The translations under genes were made by a program, and so were the position numbers. Source: Saprospiraceae bacterium (GTDB lineage: Bacteria; Bacteroidota; Bacteroidia; Chitinophagales; Saprospiraceae). Taken from it: a stretch of 48,755 nucleotides of DNA. Below the pieces are notes generated by a model, which saw only the letters and a list, made by a program, of their open reading frames with translations, did not search any database and was not told where the DNA came from. Below, in pieces: positions 13,701 through 47,776 of this stretch; within the stretch, counting starts at the first letter, position 1; each line of letters starts with the position of its first letter. Location of the stretch: positions 1-48,755 of the forward strand of contig JAHDFV010000002.1 in assembly GCA_020627985.1 (NCBI GenBank). Reading direction: 5' to 3'.

Positions 13701-14381
13701 TTATTTATAATTTTCAAACAAAATTGTACCAAAATCTTTCTTTGTTTTTATCTTTTCTTTTGTCTCTTTTGGATTACTCATATGAAAATGTTCTCCTCCT
13801 TTTTTATGCAAAAACCAATTCCTTTCTCCTTTATTATATTTAAATGTTATTATATCTGTCCATCTCATCGCACTCCCACCATAATGCTCTATGGAAAAGT
13901 ATCCATTTTTAATGACTATATCTTGATAAGGATCTCCGATCACTCCACCACAATTAGAACATAAAACAACATTATCATTTCTTTTTTCTAGAATCAATTT
14001 GCCTTCAGAATTTCGCATGAATAGAAACAGGAGTCTTTTCTGATCTTCTTTATTTAATTCTGCATTAGGATTGTGTGCTATAAGTACTACATCATTTGTC
14101 AGATCATCTAGATTAAGATCGCCATATTCAAAATCTAAAACCTTATACTCTTTTGGAATAAAACTTATCAGATATTCTAATTCTGATAAATCATTTTTCC
14201 CTATAAGGTGTTGATTTTCAAATTCGATTTCATTTGTATTATTTGATTCTATTGAGTTATTATCAATTTCAGTTCTTTCTGTGTTTATATCATCTTTAGA
14301 TAAATTTTCTTTAGGTATTTCTTGGTTCTGACAAGCTGAAAAGATTAGTATTATTAAGAGAATTTTTAGTAAATTATTCAT
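13701..14381 (-). CDS. hypothetical lipoprotein
   Basis: 226-aa ORF with signal plus lipobox (LIILIFSAC). I recognised no family. Confidence 0.6.
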   Translation of the reverse strand: MNNLLKILLIILIFSACQNQEIPKENLSKDDINTERTEIDNNSIESNNTNEIEFENQHLIGKNDLSELEYLISFIPKEYKVLDFEYGDLNLDDLTNDVVLIAHNPNAELNKEDQKRLLFLFMRNSEGKLILEKRNDNVVLCSNCGGVIGDPYQDIVIKNGYFSIEHYGGSAMRWTDIITFKYNKGERNWFLHKKGGEHFHMSNPKETKEKIKTKKDFGTILFENYK

Positions 14382-14483: not shown

Positions 14484-15971
14484 TTAGGTTTGTGCCATTT
14501 TTTCCCAATCTATTTTTACAGGTTCTTTTATATAAATAGGCGTTGGTCCTTTATATCCATCTGGAGCTCTAAATCCTCTCATTCCCGTTCTTCCTCTTCT
14601 TCCATCTCTACCATTACTACAGCCTCCTTTTCCTCCTTGTCCTGGATTCTCTGAATAGCCAGCCATTCCTGCATCTCCGCCTCTGCCGCCAGAAACATCA
14701 TATCGAATTAAATATTGATACGCCGATGCAGATTCATCTATATGGAAAGTTATTGTCCCACCTTTTCCTCCGATTCCGCCATCACCACCATCACCTCCAT
14801 GCCCTGAAAAGCCACCATTGCCTCCTACTCCACAAGTTTCTGTAGTGGTACCATCTTTATGCGTCACTTTTTTTACATCATCTCCTCTACCGCCATCTCC
14901 GCCTCTGCCGCCAATGCCACCATCTCCGCCATGACCGCCATGACCACCTCTTGCATATATCAAATAACTTCCACCTTCTGGTGTAAATTTAGCAACACTT
15001 TTTCTTCCTGAATATTTACCAATACTTAATACGGAAACGATGGTTATTCCTAATTCTTTGTTCTCTTCAGCTGATACGTAAACATCTACTGCTTCTCCAT
15101 CCATACCATTTTCACCGACTCTACCATTTTCACCATGGCCTCCATTTCTACCCTGTCCGCCATCTCCGCCAACTGAACTAAACTTTCTTCCTTTTTGCCC
15201 CCAAAATCCATTGTTTCCTCTTCTACCATGTCTTCCTGATTTTCCATCATAATAAGCAGAATATTTCCCTTTATAATCTAATGGAATCGTCAACTCCGTT
15301 TTTAATGTAGGATTAGATAACAATGAAGCAATTACTTTTACTTTATGATTCTCTGGAAACCCAATTATAATTTCACCTTCTCTATAAGTTCCTCCTTCTA
15401 CTTCTACTGAATACAAGCTCCATTCTTTATCACCTCTTAGAAAACCTTCGGTCTGCGTGATTTCATTATTATCAAATACATTGGTTATACCTAATTCTAT
15501 TTTTCCTCTTGGACCTAATAGAGCATTAGATTTATCATATTCTATTTCAATTTCTTCGATATTCCTTAATGGAATTGTTTTTCGGGTATTCAAAGTAGTA
15601 TTTCCTTTTAACTCTACATATAAGATCACTTCTTTCACATCCGATTTATTACCTTCTTCAATATAAACTACTCCTTCATGAAAAGATCCCCCTTCAACTT
15701 CTACATTAAAGTTCTCCCAGCTTAATTTCCCCCGTAAATACCCAGGGGTCTTCTTCACTTTTCTTTTCGCAATCATTTCTATACCAAATGGAATGGTTTC
15801 TCCATAAGAATAAATCGTTTTATAATCGTACTTAATTGCTATTGAATTTGCTTTCTCTGGTTTCTTAATATGCTGTAAGCCTCCAACTGATTTATACATA
15901 CAGCTATTAAATAGAAAAATAGTTCCAAATAAGAAGATGATCGTTTTGATGTTTAACATTGATTTTTCCAT
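14484..15971 (-). CDS. lipoprotein with a duplicated N-terminal domain and four glycine-rich (GGX/GXY) blocks
   Basis: 495-aa ORF with lipobox LFNSC. It has two ~90-aa repeats sharing G[YF]LRG..W..[FY].VEVEGG.[FY].EG....TIPL. These are followed by blocks such as GGHGGHGGDGGIGGRGGDGGRG. Confidence 0.7.
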   Translation of the reverse strand: MEKSMLNIKTIIFLFGTIFLFNSCMYKSVGGLQHIKKPEKANSIAIKYDYKTIYSYGETIPFGIEMIAKRKVKKTPGYLRGKLSWENFNVEVEGGSFHEGVVYIEEGNKSDVKEVILYVELKGNTTLNTRKTIPLRNIEEIEIEYDKSNALLGPRGKIELGITNVFDNNEITQTEGFLRGDKEWSLYSVEVEGGTYREGEIIIGFPENHKVKVIASLLSNPTLKTELTIPLDYKGKYSAYYDGKSGRHGRRGNNGFWGQKGRKFSSVGGDGGQGRNGGHGENGRVGENGMDGEAVDVYVSAEENKELGITIVSVLSIGKYSGRKSVAKFTPEGGSYLIYARGGHGGHGGDGGIGGRGGDGGRGDDVKKVTHKDGTTTETCGVGGNGGFSGHGGDGGDGGIGGKGGTITFHIDESASAYQYLIRYDVSGGRGGDAGMAGYSENPGQGGKGGCSNGRDGRRGRTGMRGFRAPDGYKGPTPIYIKEPVKIDWEKMAQT

Positions 15972-16187
15972 GACCTTGATTTTTATCGTTAATATTATTT
16001 GTTGTTGAAATAAATATATGTGGCTAGGACGTCTGGAAAAGTATATAAAGGGTTAAAAGACTACTAATAAAAAGATAATATTGTATGGTATCGGTTAAGA
16101 ATCGTTAATTTCTATTTTGAGATTACAAGTCATTATACATTCATTTACAATTCATTATGAATTCAAAAAGCAGTATTTATAAAAAAA

Positions 16188-16217
16188 GCGATGAGCTACA
16201 AATTGCAACTCATCGCC
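16188..16217 (-). terminator. intrinsic terminator after the Cys-rich peptide ORF
   Basis: GCGATGAG...CTCATCGC stem with a T7 run on the minus strand. Confidence 0.7.
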
Positions 16218-16244
16218 TATTTTTAAATTAAGGTTAAATATTTA

Positions 16245-16349
16245 TTAGCAACAGCCAGTAGGACAACATCCTCCACCGCAGCATAATAAACAAATTAAGC
16301 CCAAGCCTCCAATTACGGAAAGCACTATCATTGCTTTTTTCATTTTCAT
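16245..16349 (-). CDS. 34-aa Cys-rich membrane peptide (not in the ORF track)
   Basis: Hand translation gives MKMKKAMIVLSVIGGLGLICLLCCGGGCCPTGCC. It runs in the same direction as arsR, 65 nt downstream. It has its own copy of the arsR-associated palindrome upstream and a terminator downstream. Confidence 0.55.
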   Translation of the reverse strand: MKMKKAMIVLSVIGGLGLICLLCCGGGCCPTGCC

Positions 16350-16380
16350 TAATTTTTAAGTTAAAAAATAATATTTATAT

Positions 16381-16396
16381 ATCGTAATATTACGAT
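16381..16396. promoter_or_regulatory. perfect 16-bp palindrome ATCGTAATATTACGAT (candidate ArsR operator, copy 2)
   Basis: Identical to the palindrome at the arsR start. It lies 31 nt upstream of the peptide ATG. Confidence 0.55.
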
Positions 16397-16414
16397 AGCT
16401 ATAGCCAAAAAAAA

Positions 16415-16729
16415 TCAACAGCAATTAAACATTCCTCTAATATTAGAAAACCATTTTCCAAATTCAATCATATCAATACAATAACATCGATTAGGTCCAT
16501 CAATTTCGCCTTTTACGATGCCTGCTTCTTTCATTGCTTTTAAGTGTTGAGAAACTGTCGATTGCGATAAAGGTAATTCTTCTACAATATCTCCACATAC
16601 ACATGCCCCCTTTTGTAATAAGAATTCTAGAATAGCAACTCTAGCAGGATGCGCTAATGCTTTAGCCATATCGGCTAAGTCATTTTGTCTTTGTGTGAAT
16701 AATATTTTTTTACTTTTCCCCATATACAT
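16415..16729 (-). CDS. ArsR/SmtB-family metalloregulatory transcription repressor
   Basis: Winged-HTH pattern ([13 protein letters not shown]...[16 protein letters not shown]), a CVC metal-site motif (GACVCGD) and a C-terminal CC. The true start may be the second ATG at 16723. Confidence 0.85.
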
Positions 16730-16743
16730 CGTAATATTACGAT
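16728..16743. promoter_or_regulatory. perfect 16-bp palindrome ATCGTAATATTACGAT (candidate ArsR operator, copy 1)
   Basis: Overlaps the first in-frame ATG of arsR and sits 5 nt upstream of the second. Confidence 0.55.
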
Positions 16744-16819
16744 AAAGCTATTAGCAATGCAAATTATTGACAGTATTTATTATAAAAATTTGTCCGTAGT
16801 TTACCATCTCTTCATAAAG

Positions 16820-16867: not shown

Positions 16868-17425
16868 GTGAAACAGTCAAAAGTCAAACAAAATATAATT
16901 GAAACCGCTTCTAATCTATTCTATAAGAATGGTTATAATTCTACTGGGATTAATGAAATAATATCTGAAGCAGGTATTGCAAAGGCAACTTTATATAATC
17001 ATTTCAAATCTAAAGAAGATCTTTGTTTGTCTTATTTAAAATTCAAAAATTCTACTTTCCTTGAAGAAATTAGCAAATATTGTATAGCTAAACCTAAAGG
17101 GAAAAAACAAGTATTAGCCATATTCGATTTTCTGTCTTCCTTTTATAATGACAAAGATTTCAATGGATGTTGGTGTATTAAAACTGTTTCCGAAATACCA
17201 AAGCATAACGAAAAGATTCGAAAAGAAATTAAACATCAAAAGGAATTATTTATAACTTTTATATCACATTTAGTTCAAGAAAATATAGAAATAAATCAAG
17301 AATTAATTCCGTCACTTTCAAAGCAAATTTATCTTTTGTATGAGAGTGCTGTTGCAGAAAGTTATTTACATCAAAAGAATTGGCCGATAGTAGAAACTAA
17401 AAATTTATGTTCTAAAATATTATAA
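16868..17425 (+). CDS. TetR/AcrR-family transcriptional regulator
   Basis: N-terminal HTH (GYNSTGINEIISEAGIAKATLYNHFKSKEDL). GTG start. Confidence 0.85.
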   Translation: MKQSKVKQNIIETASNLFYKNGYNSTGINEIISEAGIAKATLYNHFKSKEDLCLSYLKFKNSTFLEEISKYCIAKPKGKKQVLAIFDFLSSFYNDKDFNGCWCIKTVSEIPKHNEKIRKEIKHQKELFITFISHLVQENIEINQELIPSLSKQIYLLYESAVAESYLHQKNWPIVETKNLCSKIL

Positions 17426-17485: not shown

Positions 17486-18232
17486 ATGACAAATTTTAAA
17501 AATAAAGTTGCATTCGTAATTGGTGGTACGAGCGGTATTGGAAGAGCGACTACTGAACAATTATTAGCTAGTGGTTCAAGTGTTCATATTGTAGGCAGAA
17601 ATATTGATAAAATCGCAAATCAGCCTAATCTTTTTAAACATAAAGCAGATATAACAGATAGCAATCAGTTAGATCAATTAATCCAAACGATACAATCAAC
17701 AAGTCAAATTGATTTTTTAGTTAATGCATCAGGTATATTTGGTCCGAAACCTTTTCTAGATCATACCAAAGAAGATTATAATTCGTATTTAGATTTAAAG
17801 AGAGGATTCTTCTTTTTAACACAGTCAGTTGCCAAAAAGATGAAAGAAAATAAAGGGGGATCTATTGTAAATGTAGGATCTATGTGGGCAAAACAAGCGG
17901 TTAAAGCAACTCCTTCATCTGCTTATTCCATGCAAAAGGCAGGACTACATTCCTTAACTCAGCATTTAGCGATGGAATTAGCAGACCATAATATACGAGT
18001 AAATGCAGTTTCTCCTGCGGTTGTAAATACTCCTGTTTATCATGGTGTTTTTGGAGGAAAAGAAGAGGCTGAAAAAGCATTAATAGGATTTAATGGTTTC
18101 CATCCTATTGGTAGAAATGGAACGGCTCAAGATGTGGCAAACAGTATTGTATTTTTGCTATCTGACCAAACTTCCTGGGTTACAGGAGCCATTTGGGATA
18201 CCGATGGTGGTGTAAGAGCTGGTAGGAATTAA
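17486..18232 (+). CDS. SDR-family oxidoreductase
   Basis: Rossmann motif GGTSGIG, YxxxK active site (YSMQKAG) and a 248-aa classical SDR length. Confidence 0.85.
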
Positions 18233-20403: not shown

Positions 20404-23400
20404 TTAATTTTTATGTACAGCAAAAACAATATCTACGCCATCCATATCGACTATATCTCCTTTAACACTTTTAGCTAAAGTTAACGAATCTGCTAAAACT
20501 TCTGCTTTTACATAATCTCCAAATTGATTGATCGCAGTTTCTAACATATCATGATGTTGGATATTAACTTTGATTCTATCCGTAACATTGAAATCTTTGG
20601 CTTTACGTAAATTTTGTATTCTATTGACTAATTCACGCGCCATCCCTTCCGCTTTAAGATCTTCCGTTAAAGTGATATCTAAAGCGACTGTTAAAGGACC
20701 ATCATTTGCTACTGACCAGCCTGGTATATCATCAGAAGTGATGATGAAATCTTCTAGTCCTAATTCAAATGATTCTCCATTTGCTTTAACCGTAAAGTTT
20801 CCTTTGCTTTCTAATTCAGCGATATTGTCTTGTGAAAAACCATTGATCACTTGAGAAACCGCTTTCATGTTTTTACCTAATTTCCTTCCCAATGTTTTGA
20901 AATTAGCTTTGATACTTTTGTTGACGATACCTGAAGTATCCGTGATGTATTCAAATTCTTTTACATTCACTTCCGAAAGGATTAAATCTTTTACTGCTTC
21001 TACTTGTTTTTGGAAAGATTTATCTAGTATGGGTAATAATACCTTTTGCAAAGGTTGACGAACACGGATTACTTCTTTTTTCCGTAGGGATAGAACCAAA
21101 GAAGATATTCTTTGTGCATAATCCATTCGTTGTTCCAATTCTTTATCGATCACTTTTTCATTTGCCTTAGGTAAAAATGCTAAGTGAACTGATATGTGCT
21201 TTTCTTTACCTGTTGCATTATTTAAATCTTGGTATAAACGATCTGCAAAGAACGGTGCTATAGGCGCCATTAGTTTAGCAACAGTATCCAAACAGGTATA
21301 TAGTGTTTGGTATGCTGCTAATTTATCTGTACTCATTTCTCCTTTCCAGAAACGACGACGGCATAAACGAACGTACCAATTACTTAAGTTATCTAATACA
21401 AAAGATTGTACTTTTCTAGCAGCATTGGTTGGTTCATAATCATTGTAATCTGCATCTACTTCTTTGACTAAGGAATTCAATAAGGAGATGATCCAACGAT
21501 CTATTTCTGGCCGTTTATTTAATGGCACTTCTTTTTCACTGTAATCGAATTTGTCGATGTTTGCATATAAGGCAAAGAAAGAATAGGTATTGTATAAAGT
21601 ACCAAAGAATCTTCTTCGTGTTTCATCTAGATATTCTTCATTGAATTTCAGATTGTCCCAGGGCTGCGCATTAGATAACATATACCAACGAGTAGCATCT
21701 GCTCCATATTTATCGATGGTTACAAAAGGATCAACTGCATTGCCCCAACGCTTAGACATTTTTCGTCCATTCTTATCCAATACTAATCCATTAGATACAA
21801 CCGCTTTGTAGGCAACACTATCAAAAGCCATTACACCAATTGCATGCAAGGTATAGAACCAACCTCTCGTTTGATCAACCCCTTCTGCAATGAAATTAGC
21901 TGGAAAGTTTCTTTCAAATTTTTCTTTGTTCTCAAAAGGATAATGCCACTGAGCATAAGGCATAGACCCTGAATCAAACCATACATCAATTAGATCTAAT
22001 TCTCTGGTTAGTTTTTCTCCATCTTTTGTACATAAAACAACATCATCTATATAAGGACGGTGTAAATCTTTAGGTACACTTTGCTTTAAGCCTAATTTCT
22101 TATTCGCGAAAGTTATTTCTTTTGCTAATTCCTCTATTGATCCAATACATATTTCTTTCGTTCCTTCACTGTTTCTCCATATCGGTAATGGTATTCCCCA
22201 ATATCTCGAACGAGAAAGGTTCCAATCGTTTAGGTTTTCTAACCAGTTCCCAAAACGTTTCTCTCCTGTTGCAGCTGGTTTCCATTGTATGGTTTTATTT
22301 AACTCAACCATTCTTTTTTTAGCTGCAGTTGCTTTTACAAACCAAGAATCTAAAGGATAATATAAAACAGGTTTATCCGTTCTCCAACAATGCGGATAAT
22401 TGTGCTCATATTTTTGAACATTAAAGGCTTTGTTTTCAGTCTTTAATTGTACGGCGATATCTACATCTGTATTCACATAATTAGGATCGTCTTTATAATT
22501 CTTGACGTATTTATTGGCCAAAGGTCCTGCTTCTTTTACGAATTTACCTTGCATATCCACAAGAGGTACAGGATTACCTTGTTCATCATCTACTGTTAAA
22601 GGAACGATTCCATTTTGTTCTGCAACCCGTTTATCATCTGCACCAAATGTTGGAGCGATGTGAACGATACCTGTACCATCTGATGTGGTAACAAAATCAC
22701 CTATGATTACTCTAAAGGCATCTCCTTTGGGTTGTACATAAGGCAACAATTGCTCATAATTTACATCGGCTAATTGTGATCCTTTATACTCATTGATGAT
22801 TTGATATGGTATTTTATTTCTATCCTTTTTCTCTACTGTGGCAAATCCATCTACATCGCCGTTTAAGTTTGTTTCTTTGAACCATTTCCCTAAAAGGTCT
22901 TTGGCTAATATTACAGATACTCTTTCAAATGTATAAGGGTTATAGGTATCGACTTTGACGTATTTTATATTTTTGCCTACGGCTAATGCAGTATTACTCG
23001 GTAAAGTCCAAGGCGTTGTTGTCCAAGCTAAGAAACGAACATCTTCATTTTCATTATCAAATAAAAACTCAGACGCTTTTTCCGCTTTTACTTTAAATTG
23101 ACCAACAACGGTAGTGTCTTTTACATCTTTATAGCAACCAGGTTGATTTAATTCGTGAGAACTTAAACCTGTTCCTGCTGCTGGTGAATATGGCTGTATA
23201 CTTTTACCTTTATACAACAAATTCTTTTTATATAAACGCTGTAATATATTCCAAACGGATTCTATATAGTTATTTTCATAGGTGATATATGGATCATCTA
23301 AATCTACCCAATATCCCATTTTAGTCGTGACATCATTCCATTGATCGGTGAAACGCATTACGGTTTCTCTACATTTCTTGTTATAATCATCTACCGATAT

Positions 23401-24087
23401 TTTTTTACCGATATCTTCTTTGGTGATGCCTAATTCTGATTCTACTTTTAATTCTATGGGCAATCCATGCGTATCCCATCCCGCTTTTCGTTCCACTCGC
23501 ATTCCTTTCATGGTACGATATCTACAAAAGGTGTCCTTTACGGTTCTTGCCATCACATGATGTATACCCGGTTGTCCATTAGCTGAAGGAGGACCTTCAT
23601 AGAAAACAAAAGAATTATCTTTCGGTCTTTCTTCTACAGATTTTTCAAAAACCTTGTGCTTTTTCCAGAAAGCTAACATTTCTTTATCAACAGTTACTAA
23701 ATCTAATTTAGGATATGTTTTATATTTTCCTTTTTTAGTTGCTGACGTAGAAAGGGTTTTCGGTTTCTTTGCTGTTGGTTTTTTCGTTTCTATCTTCTTT
23801 GTAGTTGCTTTTTTTACTGATGAAACCTTTTTCTTTTTAGATGTTACCCTTTCTTTTTTCACAGCAGTCTTTTCGACTGTTCTTTTTTTCAAAGCAAGAG
23901 GTTTTTGTGGATTTTTCAATGCTTTTAATTCAGCCTTTAATTGTCTGATCTGATCTTTAGCTACGTTGATGCGGTAGCTAATTTGAACAGGATTTTGATC
24001 TTTTATAGTGGCTAGAAAATCCAATTCTATTTGGTAGCGGACGATTAGGTTTCCTAATTCGTATTCTGTTAGATTTTTATTTGACAT
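20404..24087 (-). CDS. ileS: isoleucine--tRNA ligase (type 2) with a ~125-aa Lys-rich N-terminal extension
   Basis: Has the HIGH signature (PSANGQPGIHH) and KMSKS (RKMSKRWGN). The body is a typical Bacteroidota IleS from about KTYPKLDL onward. The extension is in frame, has no internal start and is preceded by a -7 box. Confidence 0.92.
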   Translation of the reverse strand: MSNKNLTEYELGNLIVRYQIELDFLATIKDQNPVQISYRINVAKDQIRQLKAELKALKNPQKPLALKKRTVEKTAVKKERVTSKKKKVSSVKKATTKKIETKKPTAKKPKTLSTSATKKGKYKTYPKLDLVTVDKEMLAFWKKHKVFEKSVEERPKDNSFVFYEGPPSANGQPGIHHVMARTVKDTFCRYRTMKGMRVERKAGWDTHGLPIELKVESELGITKEDIGKKISVDDYNKKCRETVMRFTDQWNDVTTKMGYWVDLDDPYITYENNYIESVWNILQRLYKKNLLYKGKSIQPYSPAAGTGLSSHELNQPGCYKDVKDTTVVGQFKVKAEKASEFLFDNENEDVRFLAWTTTPWTLPSNTALAVGKNIKYVKVDTYNPYTFERVSVILAKDLLGKWFKETNLNGDVDGFATVEKKDRNKIPYQIINEYKGSQLADVNYEQLLPYVQPKGDAFRVIIGDFVTTSDGTGIVHIAPTFGADDKRVAEQNGIVPLTVDDEQGNPVPLVDMQGKFVKEAGPLANKYVKNYKDDPNYVNTDVDIAVQLKTENKAFNVQKYEHNYPHCWRTDKPVLYYPLDSWFVKATAAKKRMVELNKTIQWKPAATGEKRFGNWLENLNDWNLSRSRYWGIPLPIWRNSEGTKEICIGSIEELAKEITFANKKLGLKQSVPKDLHRPYIDDVVLCTKDGEKLTRELDLIDVWFDSGSMPYAQWHYPFENKEKFERNFPANFIAEGVDQTRGWFYTLHAIGVMAFDSVAYKAVVSNGLVLDKNGRKMSKRWGNAVDPFVTIDKYGADATRWYMLSNAQPWDNLKFNEEYLDETRRRFFGTLYNTYSFFALYANIDKFDYSEKEVPLNKRPEIDRWIISLLNSLVKEVDADYNDYEPTNAARKVQSFVLDNLSNWYVRLCRRRFWKGEMSTDKLAAYQTLYTCLDTVAKLMAPIAPFFADRLYQDLNNATGKEKHISVHLAFLPKANEKVIDKELEQRMDYAQRISSLVLSLRKKEVIRVRQPLQKVLLPILDKSFQKQVEAVKDLILSEVNVKEFEYITDTSGIVNKSIKANFKTLGRKLGKNMKAVSQVINGFSQDNIAELESKGNFTVKANGESFELGLEDFIITSDDIPGWSVANDGPLTVALDITLTEDLKAEGMARELVNRIQNLRKAKDFNVTDRIKVNIQHHDMLETAINQFGDYVKAEVLADSLTLAKSVKGDIVDMDGVDIVFAVHKN

Positions 24088-24353: not shown

Positions 24354-27300
24354 CTATCGTAAAATCATCATTTTACCAAAGCCTTGTTTGAAGAATTTAT
24401 TCGTTCCAGTATCGTATTTTTCATAATCTTCTCCATCCTTTTTCACCACGACTCTATAGACATATACACCATTAGCTAATTTATCTCCATATTCATCTGT
24501 ACCATCCCATTTATATTCCGTGATATTATCTCCAATTCTTAATGGACCTAATTCATCCATGGTAATTTCACGAACAATTTTACCAGAAACCGTCATGATT
24601 TGAATTTTCATGTAATCTGGTAATTCATTCCCCGTAAGGGTGAATACAAATTGAGTAGAAGTAGAAAATGGATTTGGATAATTTAACATATTAGAGACTA
24701 ATTCTTCATTTACAATTTCAAATTGAACCCTGTAGGCTAAATCTCCTGAATTATTTCCTGTTGCATCTTTGCCTCTTACTTCTAATTCATAAATGCCATC
24801 TATAGTAAGCGATGGGCGAAATTCCATTTTCGCTTTATTTTCTTGCGATAAATTATTTGCATCTGCTGGAAAGAAAATCAGCGTAGAACCGTCTACATAA
24901 TATTCAGAAACATTATTTTCTGGATCGGTTAAGAAAACACGAAGTAAACTTGTGTCTGATAAAGCTAGATATGGATTCTCATCCAATAAAGAAATAATGA
25001 TTTCTGGAGAAGAGGCAACGAGGTCACCATCCATAATTCTTCTACCATCAAATGTTACATCTAATAATGGATTTCGTTGATCATTATTAATAAAGAATTC
25101 ACGGATACCTATATTATTATAATGATGTAATTCGACTTGATCATCATTTGGATTTGCTTCAATGATGATTCGATTTAATCCCGTAAGATTTCTCGTATCA
25201 TACGTTAATTCTCCTACGATCATATCTCCTTTCACTAAGGGTTTAATTCGATCTGTAGTGATCACTTGACTATTATCTGAACCTATAATGGTATAAGACA
25301 TTAATAAACTATCCATATCTACATCCGAAATATTTTCTATTCCGATTGCAATTTCAAGAGGTGCCCCTTGTTCTAGTGTGTCACTTTGGAATGTGAATAA
25401 TTTATTCGGAACCAAAGCTGCTTCAGGTATTGGAACATAATGTACTCTCCAATAATCCAATTGAGGAGTGGTATGACCTATGGTATCTTGAGAATGGTAG
25501 ATTAACTTTATATTAGGATAAAGTGCAGCATCAATTGTAGATAAGGGTTGATTAAATACAGAGATATTATCCATTACAAGGGTTTCTGTTCCATTGGCAG
25601 AAATGCCCATAATATCTACTTCTACACTTTCTGTTGTCGGATCATAATCATCTACATTCCATAACAAAGTTTCCCAAGAAGAAGCAGGACCAATTTCTGT
25701 TGAATACATCCAACCTTCAACTCCAAGTCCTTTAATAGCAAACGAAGCTTCAACCTCGTCAGAAGGATCTTGTCCTATTAATTCTATAGGAGAAAATTCT
25801 GTATTATTTTTTTGATACGCAAAAATATAAGGTGTTACTTCTGTTTCTAAATTTCTAATTTGAGAAGCTCCTTGTGCTTCTAGTAGATTAAATATATTTT
25901 CGCCGTTACTGTTTGAAATAGAATCTGCTGCCCAGTTATTCACATCTAAATTTTGAGGATTATTTTCTCTAAAGACATTATAGAATATTACATAATCATC
26001 GTCCTGTGCAACGGTATTTAAAGTATTCATAATCTTCGCTCTTTCGGCAGGCGAATCTGAATAAAAGATAAACCAATCAATAGGTACATCCCAACAATTT
26101 GGCGCTGCTCCCATCCCATTAGAAGGATTAACCCTTCTCGTTAAGGTTACAGGATCATAAATTGCCATAATAATGACTTCATTATGCCCTGGACAAGGCC
26201 AAGCTGTTATTTCTTTAAATCCTTCTTCAAATAAAGCAATTTCAATCCATCCTAAATTAGGATAACTATTATTGACTACAGCTATTTGCTTTTCTTGATC
26301 TCCATAAGATTGAGTTCTGGAAACTGGATCAATTTCATAATCATTAAAATCATCTTTGATAAATTGATAATAATGACTTTGATTCCAACCTGGAGGATTT
26401 GCATCTATATATACAAATGAACTGTTATGCCAATTGAATCCATTTCCTGCTATTGCAGTACTATCTATACTGACTCTCCAATAATATACCGTACTGTCAA
26501 TCATTGGTATTGCTGGATTCCAATCTAAAACTCCACCTGATTCTGTTATTACAGTAGATTCATTTAGAGGACTATTAAATAACTCAGTGGTATCAATTTC
26601 AAAATAATAATCTAATGTTTCTGAAAATACATTTGCTGTAGATGCTTTTAATATTGGATCATTGTCTGAAATGATACTAAAGTCATATGGATAAACAGGA
26701 AATATATCATTAGAGACAACGAAGAAAGGCACTTTAGCAAAATTATTAGATTCTGCTGCTGCAGGATCTTCGAATATTTCGTCATCATAATCTAGGGAAA
26801 TCTGAATATAATTAGAACCAATTGAGTTCGTTGGTTGAATAGGCAAACGGAATACATATGTTCTTTGAAAATTAGGAGCTTCAATTCTTCTTGTACCTAA
26901 ATTAATTAATGTTCCATTTGGTAATTCATTTTGTAAAAGAATATTGAATGAGTCTCTAATTCCTTTTCCTAAATTAGTTACAACTAGATTAAGATCAAAA
27001 CTATCTTCTTGAATATTTACAATAGATGGATCAATATTACTTTCTACATCATTTACAATATAATCTGGTGTTTCGTATGGATATAATTTCACTGCTGGAT
27101 CACCATGCAATACCAATGAATTTCTTAATAATTCAGCGGTATAAGAACTACTCTGGCTATAGTCATCTATAGTTGTTTTGATGATTTTTCCAAGTGTTGC
27201 TCCGTACTCATCATTTCCTACATTATCATAAAATTCTCTTGCATACTGACTTAAACTCCCTAAAGATGTAATCCATGTTGCACCAAAAAATCCAATACAA

Positions 27301-29357
27301 CCTTTGTTTTCAATAAAGACGTAGTCTTCACTCAAAGTAGATTCTACTTCGAAAATTCTATTGGTATTACATCCAATAGCATAAAAGAAAGGATACTTCC
27401 CATCGTTTTGATATTCATTCGGATTCCCTAAATCAAAATCTAATGTACTAGGAGCTGAGTGTCCAAAAAAGGTTAACATTCCTGCACCTTCATTAATTAA
27501 AGGGACTACTTGATCTAAAGGAACTTCACCAATTACACCTGTAGAATTTTTGAAGAATGAAACAACATCTGCAGCCATTTCACTGACTTCAATAGAATCT
27601 TTTAATTCGTTTAATTCACTTTTAATGAAATTCTGAATGTCTTCATCTCCTCCTCCAAAATGAAGGATTCTTTTCATCCAAGCTCTTTCATTATATGTAT
27701 GACCGTTTATGATTTGAGCATTTTCGTATTCTATAACTTTATCAAGATATAGTTTTAATTGTCCTGCATCTTTACAAGCTAATCTCCCTACTCCCATTGC
27801 TGGAGAAAAGGAATTATTGGGTGTAACAAATAGATGATCTGAAGAAGGAAAACCGAAAGAAGGAACAAATGAAAATTGTGCCCATTCGTTTGCTTCAGTT
27901 CTCATTTTATCATAAATCACACCTTTACCTATCAAGTATAAAAGTTTAGGCGCCCAAGATATTTCAGCTTTTTTCATAAAATTTTTGATCGCCATTTCAT
28001 GACGTTCAATTCCATATCCAAACTGATCATATATTTGTGTTACATCAGCAATCAAAGGAGTATATTCTCCACCAGGTAGTGTTGCTCTATAATTTGCATA
28101 TTCTTGAATATAATTATTACCATTCCCATCATCATAAAAATATGGATGAGTGACCATGATGTAATCATAATTCCCATTTGCGAAATCATATTCTATGAAA
28201 TCTCTTTTAGCTATTGAATTTACATTACTAATTGCATTTGGATGATATAGTACTAATTTTCTATCTCCTGTCCTATCTGGTAAAACGGCTTTAATTGTAG
28301 ATCCTGTTACTGTTGTGATTACTCTTAGGTTATTCGTAATATCCATTAAGATTGGAGCATTCCCAGAAACATCAAAATTGTTTATTTCTAAATATCTTTT
28401 ACCAGAAGCGGCAGGCAAAGAGAATTCAGCATAATTGCTTCCATTAAATTGAAGCAGTCGTGGATATTCTACTGTTAAATAAGCTAAATGAAATTTATCT
28501 TCTGGAGAATTTGATGCTGTTAATGTAAATGTATTATTACCAACGTTTAAATCCGATGATGGTATTTCAACATTATAATTTTTCATTTGCCAATTGGTAA
28601 ATGATTCATCATATATATTACTTCCATTCAAACTAAGTGCTACATCATGAGCTATTGGTGAAACCGAATAAAAACGTGTTTCAACTTTAGCTGTACCTGA
28701 GGCAATATCGTTTAAAGATAGATTTACATTAAGATTTGCGACTTTGGAACTACCATAACCTTCACCTTCATCGAAACCACATTTCCATGAAGAAGAGCCA
28801 TAATCCCTTCCATTTACATTTTTAGAATTATAAACGGCTGAAGCTTCATAATTACAAAATGATTCTGCTGTTGGAGGATTTTGTAAATCGTTTGCAATCC
28901 CTTGAATTGATGTTACTGGACTACTATTCCAAGTTAAGAAATAAGTAGATTCATCTGTAAACATGCTATACTCTGGATTCAATTGATCACTAGGACTAAC
29001 ATATAAATGCTGATCTATTTCACCTCTATTTTTTACTCCATAAAATTCTATAAAGTCATTCGTTCCGAAGCTTCCTGAAGTAGATACATAAGTGGAAACA
29101 ATTTTTCCATTACGATAAAGTTTAAAATCACTTCCTGTTGGAACATTAGATTCAGAAAACACACCTGCATTCACTAAATCCTGAAAAGAAAGTTGATATA
29201 TTCCATCTTCGGCTACATTTATCTTATAATACGATTGATTATAATTGATCCATTCATTTCCATATAATGTTTGTCCATTCACATCCATTTGAGCAGAAAT
29301 AGATGAAATTAAACCAAAAATAAGGAATAAGGAAAGAATAAAAATTCTAAAATTCAT
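24354..29357 (-). CDS. very large secreted C25 (gingipain-like) cysteine-peptidase-domain protein with a T9SS-type C-terminal domain
   Basis: Start chosen at MNFRIFILSLFLIFGLISSISAQ. The central region has a His/Cys pair in C25-like context (FFGHSAP...YAIGCNTN). The C-terminus (NYPNPFS...IMTVSGKIV...WDGTDEYGDKLANGVYVYRV) resembles the FlgD-Ig/T9SS sorting domain. Confidence 0.65.
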   Translation of the reverse strand: MNFRIFILSLFLIFGLISSISAQMDVNGQTLYGNEWINYNQSYYKINVAEDGIYQLSFQDLVNAGVFSESNVPTGSDFKLYRNGKIVSTYVSTSGSFGTNDFIEFYGVKNRGEIDQHLYVSPSDQLNPEYSMFTDESTYFLTWNSSPVTSIQGIANDLQNPPTAESFCNYEASAVYNSKNVNGRDYGSSSWKCGFDEGEGYGSSKVANLNVNLSLNDIASGTAKVETRFYSVSPIAHDVALSLNGSNIYDESFTNWQMKNYNVEIPSSDLNVGNNTFTLTASNSPEDKFHLAYLTVEYPRLLQFNGSNYAEFSLPAASGKRYLEINNFDVSGNAPILMDITNNLRVITTVTGSTIKAVLPDRTGDRKLVLYHPNAISNVNSIAKRDFIEYDFANGNYDYIMVTHPYFYDDGNGNNYIQEYANYRATLPGGEYTPLIADVTQIYDQFGYGIERHEMAIKNFMKKAEISWAPKLLYLIGKGVIYDKMRTEANEWAQFSFVPSFGFPSSDHLFVTPNNSFSPAMGVGRLACKDAGQLKLYLDKVIEYENAQIINGHTYNERAWMKRILHFGGGDEDIQNFIKSELNELKDSIEVSEMAADVVSFFKNSTGVIGEVPLDQVVPLINEGAGMLTFFGHSAPSTLDFDLGNPNEYQNDGKYPFFYAIGCNTNRIFEVESTLSEDYVFIENKGCIGFFGATWITSLGSLSQYAREFYDNVGNDEYGATLGKIIKTTIDDYSQSSSYTAELLRNSLVLHGDPAVKLYPYETPDYIVNDVESNIDPSIVNIQEDSFDLNLVVTNLGKGIRDSFNILLQNELPNGTLINLGTRRIEAPNFQRTYVFRLPIQPTNSIGSNYIQISLDYDDEIFEDPAAAESNNFAKVPFFVVSNDIFPVYPYDFSIISDNDPILKASTANVFSETLDYYFEIDTTELFNSPLNESTVITESGGVLDWNPAIPMIDSTVYYWRVSIDSTAIAGNGFNWHNSSFVYIDANPPGWNQSHYYQFIKDDFNDYEIDPVSRTQSYGDQEKQIAVVNNSYPNLGWIEIALFEEGFKEITAWPCPGHNEVIIMAIYDPVTLTRRVNPSNGMGAAPNCWDVPIDWFIFYSDSPAERAKIMNTLNTVAQDDDYVIFYNVFRENNPQNLDVNNWAADSISNSNGENIFNLLEAQGASQIRNLETEVTPYIFAYQKNNTEFSPIELIGQDPSDEVEASFAIKGLGVEGWMYSTEIGPASSWETLLWNVDDYDPTTESVEVDIMGISANGTETLVMDNISVFNQPLSTIDAALYPNIKLIYHSQDTIGHTTPQLDYWRVHYVPIPEAALVPNKLFTFQSDTLEQGAPLEIAIGIENISDVDMDSLLMSYTIIGSDNSQVITTDRIKPLVKGDMIVGELTYDTRNLTGLNRIIIEANPNDDQVELHHYNNIGIREFFINNDQRNPLLDVTFDGRRIMDGDLVASSPEIIISLLDENPYLALSDTSLLRVFLTDPENNVSEYYVDGSTLIFFPADANNLSQENKAKMEFRPSLTIDGIYELEVRGKDATGNNSGDLAYRVQFEIVNEELVSNMLNYPNPFSTSTQFVFTLTGNELPDYMKIQIMTVSGKIVREITMDELGPLRIGDNITEYKWDGTDEYGDKLANGVYVYRVVVKKDGEDYEKYDTGTNKFFKQGFGKMMILR

Positions 29358-29445
29358 TGTAAAAGACTTAAGTTTACTTGTACTCATATTTAAACGAGAG
29401 TAAAGTAAAATCTGTTGCAAAAAAAATTCACTTTAAGTTATGTTG

Positions 29446-29618: not shown

Positions 29619-30473
29619 ATGTCACAAATAGAAAAACGTATAGAATACGACATTATACCTCCAGATCAATTGAAGCTGGGGTTTAATGAATTGTGGAGAT
29701 ATCGAGAATTGTTTTATTTTTTTACCTGGAGAGATATCAAGGTAAAATATAAGCAAACATTGCTTGGTTTTTTGTGGGCTATATTACAGCCGTTGGCCTT
29801 AATGAGTATTTTCGTTTTTTTCTTTTCGAAATTATTAAAGATTCCAACAGATGGCTTACCTCCAGTCATTTTTTATTTTAGTGGTCTTTTGTTATGGAAT
29901 CTATTTAGTAGTGCTCTTTCAGGATCTTCAAATAGCATGGTAGAAAATGCTAATATTATCAAGAAAGTATATTTCCCACGTTTGATTATTCCAATATCTT
30001 CCATACTTGCTTCTTTCTTTGATTTCATCATGGCATTTATCATATTTTTATGCGTAATCGCTTATTATTCTTTTTCTGGAAGTCTTAGTTTTTCTATCAT
30101 ACAATGTTTAATGTATTTTTCCTTAGGATTGCTCTTAACCTTAATCACCACTTTTGGCTTGGGTTCATTGTTTGCTTCATTAAATGTAAAGTATCGAGAC
30201 TTTAGATATATCATTCCTTTCTTGATTCAGTTTTTAATGTTTATTAGTCCTGTTATCTATCCCATATCTATTTTGAAAGACTTTGTTTGGGCAAAATATT
30301 TATTCGCTTTAAATCCTTTGACTGGAGCATTAAATCTAGCTCGTGCAGGTTTTAATTCAACACTACCAGATTGGACATTAATTGGAATTAGTTTTTTATC
30401 CGCTGTTTTTCTTTTCATTATTGGGCTTTTCGTATTTAGAAAAACGGAATCGTATTTCGCTGATTTAGCTTAA
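29619..30473 (+). CDS. wzm: ABC-2 type polysaccharide export permease (Wzm/TagG-like)
   Basis: 284 aa with six predicted TM segments. The ABC-2 signature region is FLWAILQPL, and the gene is near an ATPase partner. Confidence 0.85.
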   Translation: MSQIEKRIEYDIIPPDQLKLGFNELWRYRELFYFFTWRDIKVKYKQTLLGFLWAILQPLALMSIFVFFFSKLLKIPTDGLPPVIFYFSGLLLWNLFSSALSGSSNSMVENANIIKKVYFPRLIIPISSILASFFDFIMAFIIFLCVIAYYSFSGSLSFSIIQCLMYFSLGLLLTLITTFGLGSLFASLNVKYRDFRYIIPFLIQFLMFISPVIYPISILKDFVWAKYLFALNPLTGALNLARAGFNSTLPDWTLIGISFLSAVFLFIIGLFVFRKTESYFADLA

Positions 30474-30479
30474 AGTGCA

Positions 30480-31625
30480 ATGAAGTCAAATCATTCAATA
30501 TCATTTTATACAAGGATAAAACAAGGAATCAAAAACATTCTATTCGTTTCGATTCCTACCTTTATTTTCATTCTATTGATTATTGAAATTATTTTACACT
30601 TTCTACCTATTTCCGATCATCCTACATTTGCTTTTGAACCTGAATTTAAAATTCGAAAATTTGATCCAAGTTGGAAATCAGAAGGAAATCATTCTATTGG
30701 AAAATTTTGTAAACATCCTTCAACTTGGAACGTAAATAATCAAGGTTGGATCAATAAAAAAGATTATTTAGCTTTAAAAAATAAACATAGAATTGCAGTA
30801 ATTGGAGATTCTTATGTGCAAGCCATGCAAGTAAATTCGAACGAAGCATTTCATCAAATTTTAGAAACGGAATTAGATTCTTTTGATGTATATAGTTTTG
30901 GAATTAGCGGAGCTCCTCTTTCTCAATATTACCATATGGCTAAATATGCTCAAAAACATTTTCAACCTGATATTTATATTTTTAATTTAATTCATAATGA
31001 CTTTGATGAAAGTTTATCTTCTTTAAATGGAGATAAAAGAGAATTTTGGACTCTCACAGCTCAAAATGATTCCACTTTTACTTGGAGAGCGCCAATAGAT
31101 CGTACTCAAAATAGCTCCTTGAAATCTTTTATTAAAAGAAGTGCTATCTTTCGGTATTTGAATTATAATATTAATATTAGAGCGATCATTGTCCATCAAC
31201 GGACTGTGAATGCTATGAAGAAGAATGGCGAATTGGATACAATGCTTCCATTTGAAGATAATATTAATGTAAGTCAACTAATACGTGAACAAAAAAAAAT
31301 ATCTGAATCCATCCAATTTATTTTCCAAGAAATTGCACAAACTTTTAAAGGAAAAAAAATTATAGTATTAATGGATGGTCAAAGGGAATTTATTTATAAA
31401 AATAAATTAGCAGAAAGTAATACTACTTTACTCAATCAAATGGTAAAAGAAGCTAGCCTTTTAGAAAATTTTGATTATATCGATTTAAGCCCATTATTTG
31501 AACAAGATTACAAAGAGAATAAAACTTCTTTTAATTTTGAGGAAGATTATCATTGGAATGAATATGGACATCATTTTGTTGCTCAAATTTTAAAAAAGCA
31601 TTTAACTCAAGTAGAAATAAAATAA
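30480..31625 (+). CDS. membrane-anchored SGNH/GDSL-like hydrolase or acyltransferase
   Basis: One N-terminal TM helix, GDS block I (AVIGDSYV), FGISGA, NLIHND and a C-terminal DYHW...GH block. Confidence 0.55.
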   Translation: MKSNHSISFYTRIKQGIKNILFVSIPTFIFILLIIEIILHFLPISDHPTFAFEPEFKIRKFDPSWKSEGNHSIGKFCKHPSTWNVNNQGWINKKDYLALKNKHRIAVIGDSYVQAMQVNSNEAFHQILETELDSFDVYSFGISGAPLSQYYHMAKYAQKHFQPDIYIFNLIHNDFDESLSSLNGDKREFWTLTAQNDSTFTWRAPIDRTQNSSLKSFIKRSAIFRYLNYNINIRAIIVHQRTVNAMKKNGELDTMLPFEDNINVSQLIREQKKISESIQFIFQEIAQTFKGKKIIVLMDGQREFIYKNKLAESNTTLLNQMVKEASLLENFDYIDLSPLFEQDYKENKTSFNFEEDYHWNEYGHHFVAQILKKHLTQVEIK

Positions 31626-31631
31626 CCATCA

Positions 31632-32819
31632 TTGAATATTATAGAAGCTCAACATATTTCGAAAAAATATAAAATTGGAAATAGGGAACATTACCTAAGT
31701 CTAAGGGATTCTATCATTCATTTTGGACAGAATCTTATAAAAGGAAATAAAAAAGAATTTTGGGCTTTAGATGATATTTCATTTTCGGTATCTGAAGGAG
31801 AATGCTTAGGTGTGATTGGTCACAATGGTGCAGGGAAATCAACTTTACTTAAAATACTTTCTCAAATTACTCCTCCTACAAAAGGAAAAATAAAAATGAG
31901 AGGACGAGTCGCTAGTTTACTTGAAGTAGGAACTGGTTTTCATCCTGAACTAACTGGACGAGAAAACATTTTTTTAAATGGTTCTATTCTTGGAATGCGG
32001 AAATGGGAAATAAAAAAGCAATTTGATGAGATTGTTGATTTTAGTGGTGTGGAAGAATTTTTAGAAACTCCATTAAAACATTATTCGAATGGAATGCAAT
32101 TGCGTTTGGCTTTTGGTGTTGCAGCACATCTAGAACCAGAAATTCTGATCATTGATGAAGTACTTGCTGTTGGGGATGCCGCTTTTCAAAAAAAATGCCT
32201 TCAAAAAATGGATGCGGTAAGTCAGAGTGGTCGGACGATTGTTTTCGTCAGTCATAATATGGAAGCCATTACTCGTTTGTGTCCTAAAAGTATTTTATTG
32301 GAAAAAGGAAAAATTGTAGATAAAGGGAATTCAAATAATATCATTCATTTGTATGAAAAAAGAATTGGCAACGATTTAGAATATCAAATTAATTCCATTC
32401 ATACTGATATTTTAGGAATGATAAGTATCGAACATTTTTCATTAGAATTAAATGAAGGGAATATCCGAACGACTTTAAGATTAAATGGGCAGTTGGATAA
32501 AATCACCTCAATTGTTTATCCGATTTATTCTTCAGGAGGTCAAAGAATTTCATTAGTTGATTTACGAGAAGAAGTATTGCCTTATTTAAAAAATAATCCT
32601 CATTTAAAAACGATAGAAGTTTCAACGACAATTCAAACTTCTCATTTTGTTGAAGGCACTTATTCTTTAGCAATCAGTGTGCAAGTGAATCATAATTATT
32701 GGGCTGAAAATAAAAAAATTAGTTTCCCTGTAAAAGAAAGAGAACATAAAAAGTATGCGCCATATTTAGCAGCACATAGAGGATTTTTTGAAACAGATTC
32801 TGTTACAGAAATTAAGTAA
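31632..32819 (+). CDS. wzt: polysaccharide ABC exporter ATP-binding protein (Wzt/TagH-like) with a C-terminal extension
   Basis: Walker A (GHNGAGKST), a signature-region equivalent (YSNGMQLRL) and Walker B (ILIIDE). An extra ~145-aa beta-rich C-terminal domain is present. TTG start. Confidence 0.85.
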   Translation: MNIIEAQHISKKYKIGNREHYLSLRDSIIHFGQNLIKGNKKEFWALDDISFSVSEGECLGVIGHNGAGKSTLLKILSQITPPTKGKIKMRGRVASLLEVGTGFHPELTGRENIFLNGSILGMRKWEIKKQFDEIVDFSGVEEFLETPLKHYSNGMQLRLAFGVAAHLEPEILIIDEVLAVGDAAFQKKCLQKMDAVSQSGRTIVFVSHNMEAITRLCPKSILLEKGKIVDKGNSNNIIHLYEKRIGNDLEYQINSIHTDILGMISIEHFSLELNEGNIRTTLRLNGQLDKITSIVYPIYSSGGQRISLVDLREEVLPYLKNNPHLKTIEVSTTIQTSHFVEGTYSLAISVQVNHNYWAENKKISFPVKEREHKKYAPYLAAHRGFFETDSVTEIK

Positions 32820-32821
32820 GA

Positions 32822-33532
32822 ATGGCTTACCATCACGATAAAAAAATACACAATAAAAATTCAGCTCAGGAAATAATTCCTTTGCTCTTTAATATTTTCC
32901 CAAGTATTAATAGTGTTGCGGATGTTGGCTGTGGTCTAGGTGAATGGCTTGCCGTTTTTAAAGAAAAAGGCGTTTCTGAAATTCTAGGAATTAATGGTGA
33001 TTGGACAAATATAGATGAGCTATATTTTGATAAAAAAGATTTAAAAATTTGGGATTTAACTCAACCATTAAAAATTGCAAAAAAGTATGATTTAGTTTTA
33101 TGTTTAGAAGTAGCTGAACATTTACCTGAATCTGCAGCTGATACCATTGTTGAAACCTTATCTCAATTAGGTAACAATATTATCTTTTCTGCAGCGATTC
33201 CTCATCAGGGAGGTCAAAATCATTTAAATGAACAATGGCCAGAATATTGGGCAGATAAATTTAAAAAACATGGATTTTATTTTCATGATTGTATTCGGCC
33301 TATTATTTGGGATAATGCATCAATTTTCCCTTGGTATCGCCAAAATATGTTTTTAGTTTCGAACCAAGAACAAGATTATGAGAATCAATATTTAAATATT
33401 GCACATCCTGAATTATATGAAAAGAAAATGAAACGTATTTTAAATGGCACGATGGGTTTACGTTTCGGATTTCATGTTTTTAAACAATCTCTTTATTCTT
33501 TTATTCGCAGAAAAATAAATGGAAAACCTTAG
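32822..33532 (+). CDS. class I SAM-dependent methyltransferase
   Basis: Motif I (VADVGCGLGEW) and post-I/II motifs (LVLCLEVAEHL). Confidence 0.8.
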   Translation: MAYHHDKKIHNKNSAQEIIPLLFNIFPSINSVADVGCGLGEWLAVFKEKGVSEILGINGDWTNIDELYFDKKDLKIWDLTQPLKIAKKYDLVLCLEVAEHLPESAADTIVETLSQLGNNIIFSAAIPHQGGQNHLNEQWPEYWADKFKKHGFYFHDCIRPIIWDNASIFPWYRQNMFLVSNQEQDYENQYLNIAHPELYEKKMKRILNGTMGLRFGFHVFKQSLYSFIRRKINGKP

Positions 33533-38519: not shown

Positions 38520-38548
38520 TTTATGAATTCATTAAAGAAATCGATTTA

Positions 38549-39679: not shown

Positions 39680-39685
39680 TGGGTA

Positions 39686-40762: not shown

Positions 40763-40766
40763 AATG

Positions 40767-43324: not shown

Positions 43325-43328
43325 ATCC

Positions 43329-47758: not shown

Positions 47759-47776
47759 ACCTTTATTGTCGTCTTA

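Follow-up and report, generated by a model that had tools for sequence, protein, structure and literature searches.

What might a repressor of the ArsR/SmtB family control when the only gene linked to it in cis encodes a cysteine-rich peptide of 32–34 residues? The question is raised by a locus within 48,755 nucleotides of DNA from a Saprospiraceae bacterium of the Bacteroidota (GenBank assembly GCA_020627985.1, contig JAHDFV010000002.1, positions 1 to 48,755; hereafter the window), in which an arsR gene is followed by a small unannotated open reading frame (ORF) and each of the two lies behind an exact copy of the same 16-bp palindrome. As judged from sequence comparison, the small ORF is a real conserved gene. 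The peptide family that it represents and the conserved second operator in front of it are new, whereas the sensor and its operator are of a type already published in 2025, that of ArArsR. On balance, we favour the view that the pair forms a two-gene arsenic-response module, whose product would be a thiol peptide, induced by arsenite and anchored in the membrane, with trivalent arsenicals as its ligands.

The peptide gene and its relatives

The whole unit, comprising arsR, the two palindromes, the peptide ORF and a terminator, is encoded on the minus strand (Table 1). A preliminary description, made from the letters of this DNA without database searches, had placed the small ORF in the same direction as arsR and 65 nt past its stop codon, with Cys as seven of its last 15 residues and with a stem and T-run terminator behind it, and all of these features are present. 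The peptide consists of a basic N-terminus, a hydrophobic anchor and a tail that reads CC-GGG-CC-PTG-CC (CCGGGCCPTGCC). Because its relatives begin with MKK, the second ATG of the ORF may be the start that is used.

Conservation was assessed across 80 genome loci with ArsR relatives and nine loci of the closest proteins (the labels of all loci, metagenomic ones included, run from L001 to L153). In all seven of the closest loci whose contigs extend past arsR (L081–L084 and L086–L088; ArsR 66–76% identical), an uncalled ORF of 30–34 codons follows the second palindrome and ends before a terminator, as in MKKVMIVVSILGALGLACYACCGGECCPIGCCGL, MKKAILIALGLGGIVATLCCTLPCCSGGCC and MKKYILMASMVLGIGAIACCAFCDPACCPIGCC. 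The peptide genes of the three closest loci share just 65–71% of their nucleotides, and the ratio of nonsynonymous to synonymous substitution rates (dN/dS) is 0.05–0.17, with dS near or past saturation. Cys codons swap between TGT and TGC, and the six Cys columns are invariant in the five closest sequences; the hydrophobic segment is poorly conserved and the Cys tail invariant. The comparison of related loci that the preliminary description had proposed, including Ka/Ks, thus came out in favour of a gene under purifying selection.

The family extends well beyond these neighbours. A metagenome scan for the palindrome followed by two CC pairs returned 64 loci, approximately 45 of which are ArsM genes with SCCGSGCCS at the N-terminus, while approximately 18 carry mini-peptides, including some 13 distinct hydrophobic-anchored versions of 28–38 residues from marine, freshwater and soil samples (for example MKVLMALLGITSTVALACCDLPCCDLPCC and MKKTIIILGTVGTLAAVACGFCDPGCCDGACCQILGCC). 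Unrelated ORFs with a CC..CC pattern elsewhere amount to just a handful in 0.9 Mb of fetched DNA. All related arsR–peptide units end in a stem and T-run, and the genes that flank the pair are unrelated or convergent in every longer contig, in keeping with the self-contained module of sensor and peptide that had been proposed.

Database searches returned nothing for the peptide: it has no match in Pfam or NCBIfam (E up to 0.1–1), a full HMMER scan of 1.84 billion representative proteins gave 0 matches, and five natural variants, concatenated, gave 0 matches at E up to 10 in a word-indexed search of 5.8 billion clusters. These negatives are weakened by composition filters and by how short and compositionally biased the peptide is, and show at least that the gene is uncalled and unnamed. 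The literature search yielded nothing relevant on a Cys-rich ars peptide. The earlier remark that the arrangement did not seem to have been described therefore holds for the peptide, of which no description was found, but not for the half made up of ArsR and palindrome, which was described in 2025.

Table 1. Features of the arsR–peptide unit, with positions in the window.
Feature	Position	Strand	Remarks
arsR, ArArsR-type repressor	16415..16723	-	102 aa + stop; mechanical ORF 16415..16729, 104 aa
Unannotated Cys-rich peptide gene	16245..16349	-	34 aa, or 32 aa from ATG 16343; MKMKKAMIVLSVIGGLGLICLLCCGGGCCPTGCC
Intrinsic terminator	16176..16218	-	stem of 15 pairs (6 of them GC) at 16218..16186, 3-nt loop, followed by T7
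Operator O1, perfect palindrome ATCGTAATATTACGAT	16728..16743	.	exact match, 4 nt 5' of family-consistent arsR start
Operator O2, second exact copy of ATCGTAATATTACGAT	16381..16396	.	18 nt past arsR stop, 31 nt before peptide ATG
TTTG, candidate -33 element of arsR	16760..16763	-	20 nt upstream of palindrome start; putative
T8GG run, candidate -7-like element for peptide gene	16405..16414	-	abuts arsR stop; TTTG at -13 from O2; putative

The repressor and its two operators

The ArsR protein matches HTH_5 of Pfam (7.6e-15) and NF033788 of NCBIfam, the ArsR/SmtB metalloregulator family (1e-20), and has the winged-helix ArsR/SmtB fold; its PDB matches, to ArsR-family repressors, are distant. The GACVCGD motif and the terminal CC noted earlier are both present, and the family matches support the assignment. 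In an alignment of 27 homologues, Cys41, Cys43, Cys80, Cys82 and the C-terminal CC are invariant or nearly so (numbering of the 102-residue protein, in which the C-terminal pair, counted from the MG start, is 101/102; the same residues are C43, C45, C82, C84 and C103/104 in the 104-residue ORF). Because this alignment starts at MG, the arsR start is almost certainly the ATG at 16723. The upstream palindrome, correctly located before but placed at the arsR start, consequently lies 4 nt upstream of the start codon and not over it.

A full-text search with the palindrome itself led to a paper on ArArsR of Arsenicibacter rosenii SM-1 (Zhang, Wu, Huang and Zhao, mLife 2025; PMC11868830). ArArsR possesses the cysteines C41, C43, C80, C82, C107 and C108, of which C41, C80 and C82 are required for As(III) sensing and C41 and C82 for methylarsenite, while C43, the second Cys of CVC, and the C-terminal CC are not needed for induction (PMC11868830). 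The repressor is autoregulated with As(III) and methylarsenite as inducers, and its arsRMC operon is up 158- to 351-fold with 10 µM As(III); arsenic species were the only ones tried in that study (PMC11868830). The cysteine set of the ArsR described here is identical to that of ArArsR, and the exact palindrome with ATCGTAATATTGCGAT stands upstream of arsR and is kept family-wide. Since the six cysteines and the operator are as in ArArsR, the sensor half of the unit belongs to the described ArArsR type (the fourth type). By this analogy, the inducers are likely trivalent arsenicals and not the Zn and Cd of the SmtB comparison, and homology to an experimentally studied protein strongly supports the regulatory half as a whole (repressor, operator and inducers). 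The zinc and cadmium logic of SmtB–SmtA invoked in the preliminary description therefore gives way to As(III) or methylarsenite, as the ArArsR type indicates. The reading of CVC as a site for As(III) and soft metals survives in part: As(III) is a likely inducer, but the ArArsR site is made up of Cys41, Cys80 and Cys82, and the second CVC Cys is dispensable. The ArsRs linked to stand-alone mini-peptides all fall into one weakly supported clade in neighbour-joining trees (bootstrap 37/100).

The palindrome occurs exactly twice in the 48,755 bases, and its absence elsewhere in the window, claimed earlier for the exact sequence, extends to matches with up to three mismatches. At three mismatches, chance alone would give 0.41 matches on average, and two were reached in 7 of 100 shuffled sequences; an exact double is far rarer. 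ArArsR was found bound to 5'-TTTTATCGTAATATTGCGATCACAATC-3' by DNase I footprinting and electrophoretic mobility shift assay (PMC11868830), and the palindrome is contained within this footprinted site. Of 84 related loci, almost every one has the palindrome 16–35 nt ahead of arsR, and a second copy lies approximately 19 nt past the arsR stop, before the next gene, in most of the family; both O1 and O2, each with at most two mismatches, are present in 75 loci. As a possible sign of a DNA loop joining O1 and O2, their spacing was compared: centre-to-centre distances in these 75 range from 344 to 413 bp, with weak helical phasing (R = 0.22, p ~0.03, uncorrected for relatedness). Conservation in both positions, together with the footprint of a family member (PMC11868830), argues for a real operator.

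The preliminary description had itself raised the contrary case, in which the second palindrome acts as a mere RNA hairpin or terminator. The palindrome is conserved as sequence and not just as pairing ability, and the hairpin at O2 is weak. Because the T-run precedes O2 and the arsR–peptide spacer is no more stably folded than its shuffled versions (z = -0.8), O2 is to be regarded as an operator rather than a terminator. In the ArArsR operon, arsR is co-transcribed with the downstream genes and one binding site, upstream of arsR, is described; a second operator after arsR and small ORFs go unmentioned (PMC11868830).

The two positions differ in their sequence context. Promoters of Bacteroidetes consist of a -33 and a -7 element (TAnnTTTG). 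Upstream copies of the palindrome favour the core variant TAATATTG, with TTTG at -19 or -20 in 23 of 66, and the resulting spacing of 19–20 nt from TTTG to TAATATT[G/A] would fit a promoter of the -33/-7 kind with the palindrome core as its -7 box. Among downstream copies, perfect palindromes are commoner, and a T7–8G run with TTTG at exactly -13 is found in 32 of 48 loci. With moderate confidence, we take this T-run for the -7-like box of a second promoter, from which transcription would start at O2; alternatively, the peptide gene may be reached by read-through from the arsR promoter, with O2 as a roadblock. Three palindromes each are present in L086:1810-1965, L087:1810-1964 and L088:1810-1956, where the block of T7–8G run, 9 nt and palindrome is duplicated before the peptide gene. 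In the 5' untranslated region of the peptide gene, the same three loci have a hairpin that is absent from the window and whose stem covaries across the three.

Possible role of the peptide

The unit is placed in an arsenic context because ArsM, ArsC and Acr3 genes stand behind O2 in sister loci. Across the 80 genome loci, the slot behind O2 is usually filled by an ArsM-type S-adenosylmethionine-dependent methyltransferase (Methyltransf_31, ~280 residues), mostly followed by Acr3 (PF01758). The other usual occupant is a DUF6428 protein (~157 residues, E = 1e-66), followed by an ArsC of the low-molecular-weight phosphatase type, by Acr3 or by an aquaglyceroporin; one locus has a GNAT acetyltransferase. 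DUF6428 occurs in no searchable paper. The tails of ArsM (CCGPDCCN, CCEPGSGCC) and of DUF6428 (CCTPGGGCC) look like that of the peptide. A C-terminal CC tail is seen on four unrelated products behind the palindrome, namely ArsR (16415-16420 in the window), ArsM, DUF6428 and the mini-peptides. The tail is dispensable for ArArsR induction (PMC11868830) yet nearly invariant in the family, which hints at a possible role in thiol relay.

Small Cys peptides of other builds are also found in sister loci. A second, hydrophilic class, such as MNKQRKNEPGCCSPGNECCGNLAGLGCC, lies inside genuine arsR–arsM–GNAT–Acr3/ArsC operons of Chitinophagaceae (L017:4163-4333, L033:4267-4359, L076:4250-4339 and L079:3405-3491); its members have 25–30 residues, follow the pattern K-(N/D)-(D/E)-P-G-CC...CC...GCC and are uncalled by gene finders. 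In some stand-alone units, the peptide has a short, aromatic or hydrophobic N-terminus with no basic residues, as in MNLFAMFQNWFAYLTGNGICCNGTGCC and its orthologue MNLFAMFQNWFAFLAGNGNCCGGGGCC (L002:3616-3711, L073:770-853, L124:73-162 and L128, the last a 27-residue ORF after the palindrome). These versions may be peripheral to the membrane rather than transmembrane anchors.

The anchored peptides have one to three Lys/Arg in the first six residues, then an uncharged hydrophobic run of 12–22 residues and a tail with two to four CC pairs (mostly three), 0 basic and 0–2 acidic residues. On the Hessa scale, the apparent free energy of insertion is -2.5 kcal/mol for the best 19-residue window of the peptide studied here; the range is -2.5 to +3.4 kcal/mol for the anchored peptides versus +6.6 to +18.5 kcal/mol for an unanchored set made up of the hydrophilic class and the peptides with a short hydrophobic N-terminus. 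The positive-inside rule predicts that the anchored peptides are oriented N-in/C-out. By analogy with AfArsR, which binds As(III) via Cys95, Cys96 and Cys102, and with ArsD, which does so via Cys12, Cys13 and Cys18, the CC-x3-CC-x3-CC spacing would offer two S3 sites (i, i+1, i+5/6) for As(III), or three S2 sites for methylarsenite.

From these elements, we infer the regulation of this peptide gene and the membrane insertion, topology and arsenic binding of its product. An ArsR dimer would sit on the palindrome ATCGTAATATTRCGAT both at O1, in the arsR promoter, and at O2, in the spacer before the peptide gene. The repressor would be freed by trivalent arsenic, As(III) via Cys41, Cys80 and Cys82 and methylarsenite via Cys41 and Cys82, and arsR and the small gene would then be transcribed, whether by the arsR promoter alone, with passage through O2, or with the T-run promoter beside O2 contributing as well. 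The peptide of 32–34 residues would enter the cytoplasmic membrane by its N-terminal hydrophobic segment and show three vicinal Cys pairs, whose six thiols could hold either two As(III), each bound by three sulfurs, or as many as three methylarsenite, each bound by two. The peptide would thus be an inducible sink, a decoy or a hand-off point at the membrane.

Several points weigh against this arsenic-binding module. There is no arsenic efflux or methylation gene within the 48.7-kb window, and a stoichiometric sink is a weak defence of limited capacity unless it is tied to efflux. The ArsRs beside stand-alone peptides may be a clade of their own, given the grouping mentioned above (bootstrap 37/100), and their inducer is assigned by analogy. 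The promoter at O2 was assigned from motif spacing. None of the protein collections searched contains the peptide, which hence lacks a proteomic trace, and the predicted N-in/C-out orientation would leave its thiols outside the cytoplasm, open to oxidation.

How, then, do other readings of the peptide compare with the same evidence? Under the same regulation, it could be a small regulatory membrane protein like AcrZ, KdpF or MgtS that modulates an aquaglyceroporin, Acr3 or a phosphate transporter, with its cysteines as an arsenic-dependent switch or contact residues instead of a sink. This is unlikely in our judgement, although the size, the single hydrophobic span and the stand-alone gene are those of known small membrane regulators, a stoichiometric sink seems inefficient, and aquaglyceroporin and Acr3 are encoded in the sister operons. 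None of the more than 20 loci has a linked partner gene, and the combination of a variable hydrophobic segment with an invariant Cys tail is the reverse of what helix–helix recognition predicts; moreover, the versions with a short N-terminus (L002, L073, L124 and L128) occupy the same slot, and hydrophilic versions occur inside ars operons. Quite unlikely, for its part, is a cleaved signal peptide that releases a secreted or periplasmic thiol peptide of 12–17 residues for arsenicals or another thiophilic ion. A precursor of 30 residues is a poor Sec substrate, there is no conserved lipobox, and free extracellular thiols would oxidize; a basic n-region, an h-region of 14–17 residues in most members (up to 22), the predicted C-out orientation and small residues at -3/-1 before the first Cys in approximately 10 of 18 members (ALA|CC, AVA|CC, AIA|CC) would agree with cleavage, but the A-x-A-like motif is missing in the other 8, among them the peptide of the window (GLI|C), and Pro occupies -1 in two.

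The identity of the ligand and the coding nature of the ORF can be questioned as well. If the specificity of ArsR/SmtB proteins in this clade had moved off arsenic, the product could be a metallothionein-like peptide for Cd, Zn, Cu or Hg. Poly-Cys tails hold many thiophilic metals, the inducers considered for ArArsR were confined to arsenic, the peptide-linked ArsRs may be a separate clade, and the CC-x-x-P of some relatives recalls the Cys pairs of MerT and MerF. Nevertheless, we consider this very unlikely, given that Cys41, Cys80, Cys82 and the operator are the same as in the arsenic-responsive type, that all functionally assignable genes behind the palindrome are arsenic genes, and that the peptide has no Pfam or NCBIfam match to metallothionein, MerF/T/E or ArsD. 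The negligible probability that we give to an ORF that is not a protein gene at all, being a leader peptide or attenuator, a small RNA or a chance ORF, reflects the low dN/dS at saturated dS and the Cys columns that stay invariant through codon switching, as well as an Rfam match at chance level (22 bits versus a gathering score of 216); the very short length, the silence of gene callers and the covarying 5' hairpin of L086–L088 are what such a view could draw on. The role of a leader peptide is excluded because the ORF is followed by a terminator and then by unrelated or convergent genes that differ between loci, which leaves nothing to attenuate. One further candidate was rejected, a precursor of a ribosomally synthesized and post-translationally modified peptide (for example SCIFF/ranthipeptide), since the neighbours are TetR, a short-chain dehydrogenase, Lipase_3, SpoU, a Gly-rich protein and a PAS kinase and there is no maturase in related loci. 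A lipoprotein is improbable, since the peptide sequences have no conserved lipobox.

The arsenic-binding module could be one instance of something larger. We tentatively propose, as quite possible though short of an even chance, that Bacteroidota possess a widespread unannotated class of ribosomal mini-peptides (17–38 residues, two to four CC pairs) that forms a gene-encoded chelation or thiol-relay arm of arsenic resistance. Some members would be anchored and alone behind an ArArsR-type repressor, others hydrophilic within arsR–arsM–Acr3 operons, and the relay would employ the CC tails common to ArsR, ArsM and DUF6428. Bacterial arsenic resistance has so far been described in terms of efflux, reduction and methylation, and chelation figures in the arsenic literature as a strategy of eukaryotes. 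If the proposed role is correct, a dedicated sensor with a gene-encoded, arsenite-inducible poly-thiol peptide for its one product would represent a fourth strategy, or the missing step of hand-off at the membrane, and would suggest why CC tails are conserved on ArsR, ArsM and DUF6428. In any case, a small gene conserved in Bacteroidota of marine, freshwater and soil habitats has escaped both gene callers and family libraries, and the second operator, conserved as well, broadens the published model of ArArsR regulation. Practical uses could lie in biosensors and bioremediation, for which the peptide would provide an arsenic-binding membrane tag of 30 residues and the regulatory half a tight switch with two operators.

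Known systems and genomic surroundings

The closest known system is ArArsR/arsRMC, which shares the ArsR subtype, six equivalent cysteines and the footprinted operator core ATCGTAATATTGCGAT (PMC11868830). It differs in its targets, which are arsM and arsC there, whereas the sole cis-linked target here is the Cys peptide. SmtB–SmtA is similar in its logic, in which the only effector under a metal-sensing ArsR-family repressor is a small, Cys-rich product that sequesters; SmtA, however, is a soluble Zn/Cd protein of ~56 residues with a Cys/His cluster fold, and its gene is transcribed divergently, whereas the peptide has 32–34 residues, a hydrophobic anchor, vicinal Cys pairs, a gene co-directional with the repressor, an arsenic context and no sequence similarity to SmtA. 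The peptide does not qualify as a bacterial metallothionein (SmtA/BmtA). The metallothionein-like effector of the preliminary description accordingly finds little to support it, as such a short anchored peptide has no match in Pfam or NCBIfam. ArsD also belongs to ArsR-controlled ars operons and binds As(III) on vicinal Cys plus a third, nearby Cys for delivery to a membrane pump, but it is a soluble thioredoxin-fold protein of ~120 residues whose partner is the ArsA ATPase; the peptide has no homology to it and is predicted to be membrane-anchored, there is no arsA in the window or the related loci, and what the two share is the vicinal-Cys chemistry.

MerF, MerT and MerE are likewise small membrane proteins with vicinal CC at helix ends under a metal-sensing repressor, and several relatives of the peptide carry a CC-x-x-P motif (for example CCDLP, CCSLP and CCTLP). 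The Mer proteins, though, have 78–116 residues, two or three helices and Cys pairs at both sides or ends, and import Hg(II) to MerA, whereas the peptide has one span with all Cys pairs at one end; there is no match to the MerF/MerT/MerE families and no mer gene nearby in the window, and the peptide is not assigned to them. Similarly, CYSTM proteins are small, Cys-rich, single-span and induced by heavy-metal and other stress (PMC10217909), but they are eukaryotic and tail-anchored, with Cys within the C-terminal helix, whereas the anchor of the peptide is N-terminal, the Cys pairs follow it and there is no Pfam match. This resemblance is at most convergent. Phytochelatins are thiol-rich peptides that chelate As(III) as well; they are made enzymatically from glutathione, whereas the peptide is ribosomal, gene-encoded, bacterial and probably membrane-bound.

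The window is chromosomal core sequence, with genes for isoleucyl-tRNA synthetase (IleRS), a SpoU methylase, Lipase_3, a PAS histidine kinase, DUF5916 and an M1 peptidase, and is syntenic with L081–L083. By its IleRS, it falls among uncultured Bacteroidota; the nearest named relatives, Saprospiraceae and Bacteroidota metagenome-assembled genomes, are ~69% identical, and a partial one at 84% bears the label Maribacter, which gives no firm support to the Flavobacteriia assumed in the preliminary description. A TetR regulator (16868-17425, plus strand) and a short-chain dehydrogenase (17486-18232, plus strand) lie between Lipase_3 and arsR. As Lipase_3 is directly upstream in L081 and L083, this pair looks like an insertion in the window. 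Downstream of the arsR–peptide unit, the minus strand encodes a 495-residue lipoprotein-like protein (14484-15971) with GGxGG repeats in its C-terminal half, whose sole match is weak and sub-threshold (Collagen), and a 226-residue protein with no family match (13701-14381); both genes are kept in L081–L083, with their own spacing and promoter region. The mechanical ORF of IleRS (20404-24087, minus strand) has 1227 residues. Because most homologues have ~1100 residues, covering ~90%, its first in-frame start is probably unused, yet two close relatives are called at 1218–1220 residues. Farther along, a minus-strand ORF of 1688 residues (24354-29420) is followed by co-directional genes at 29619-48751, which may be a polysaccharide or glycosyltransferase cluster.

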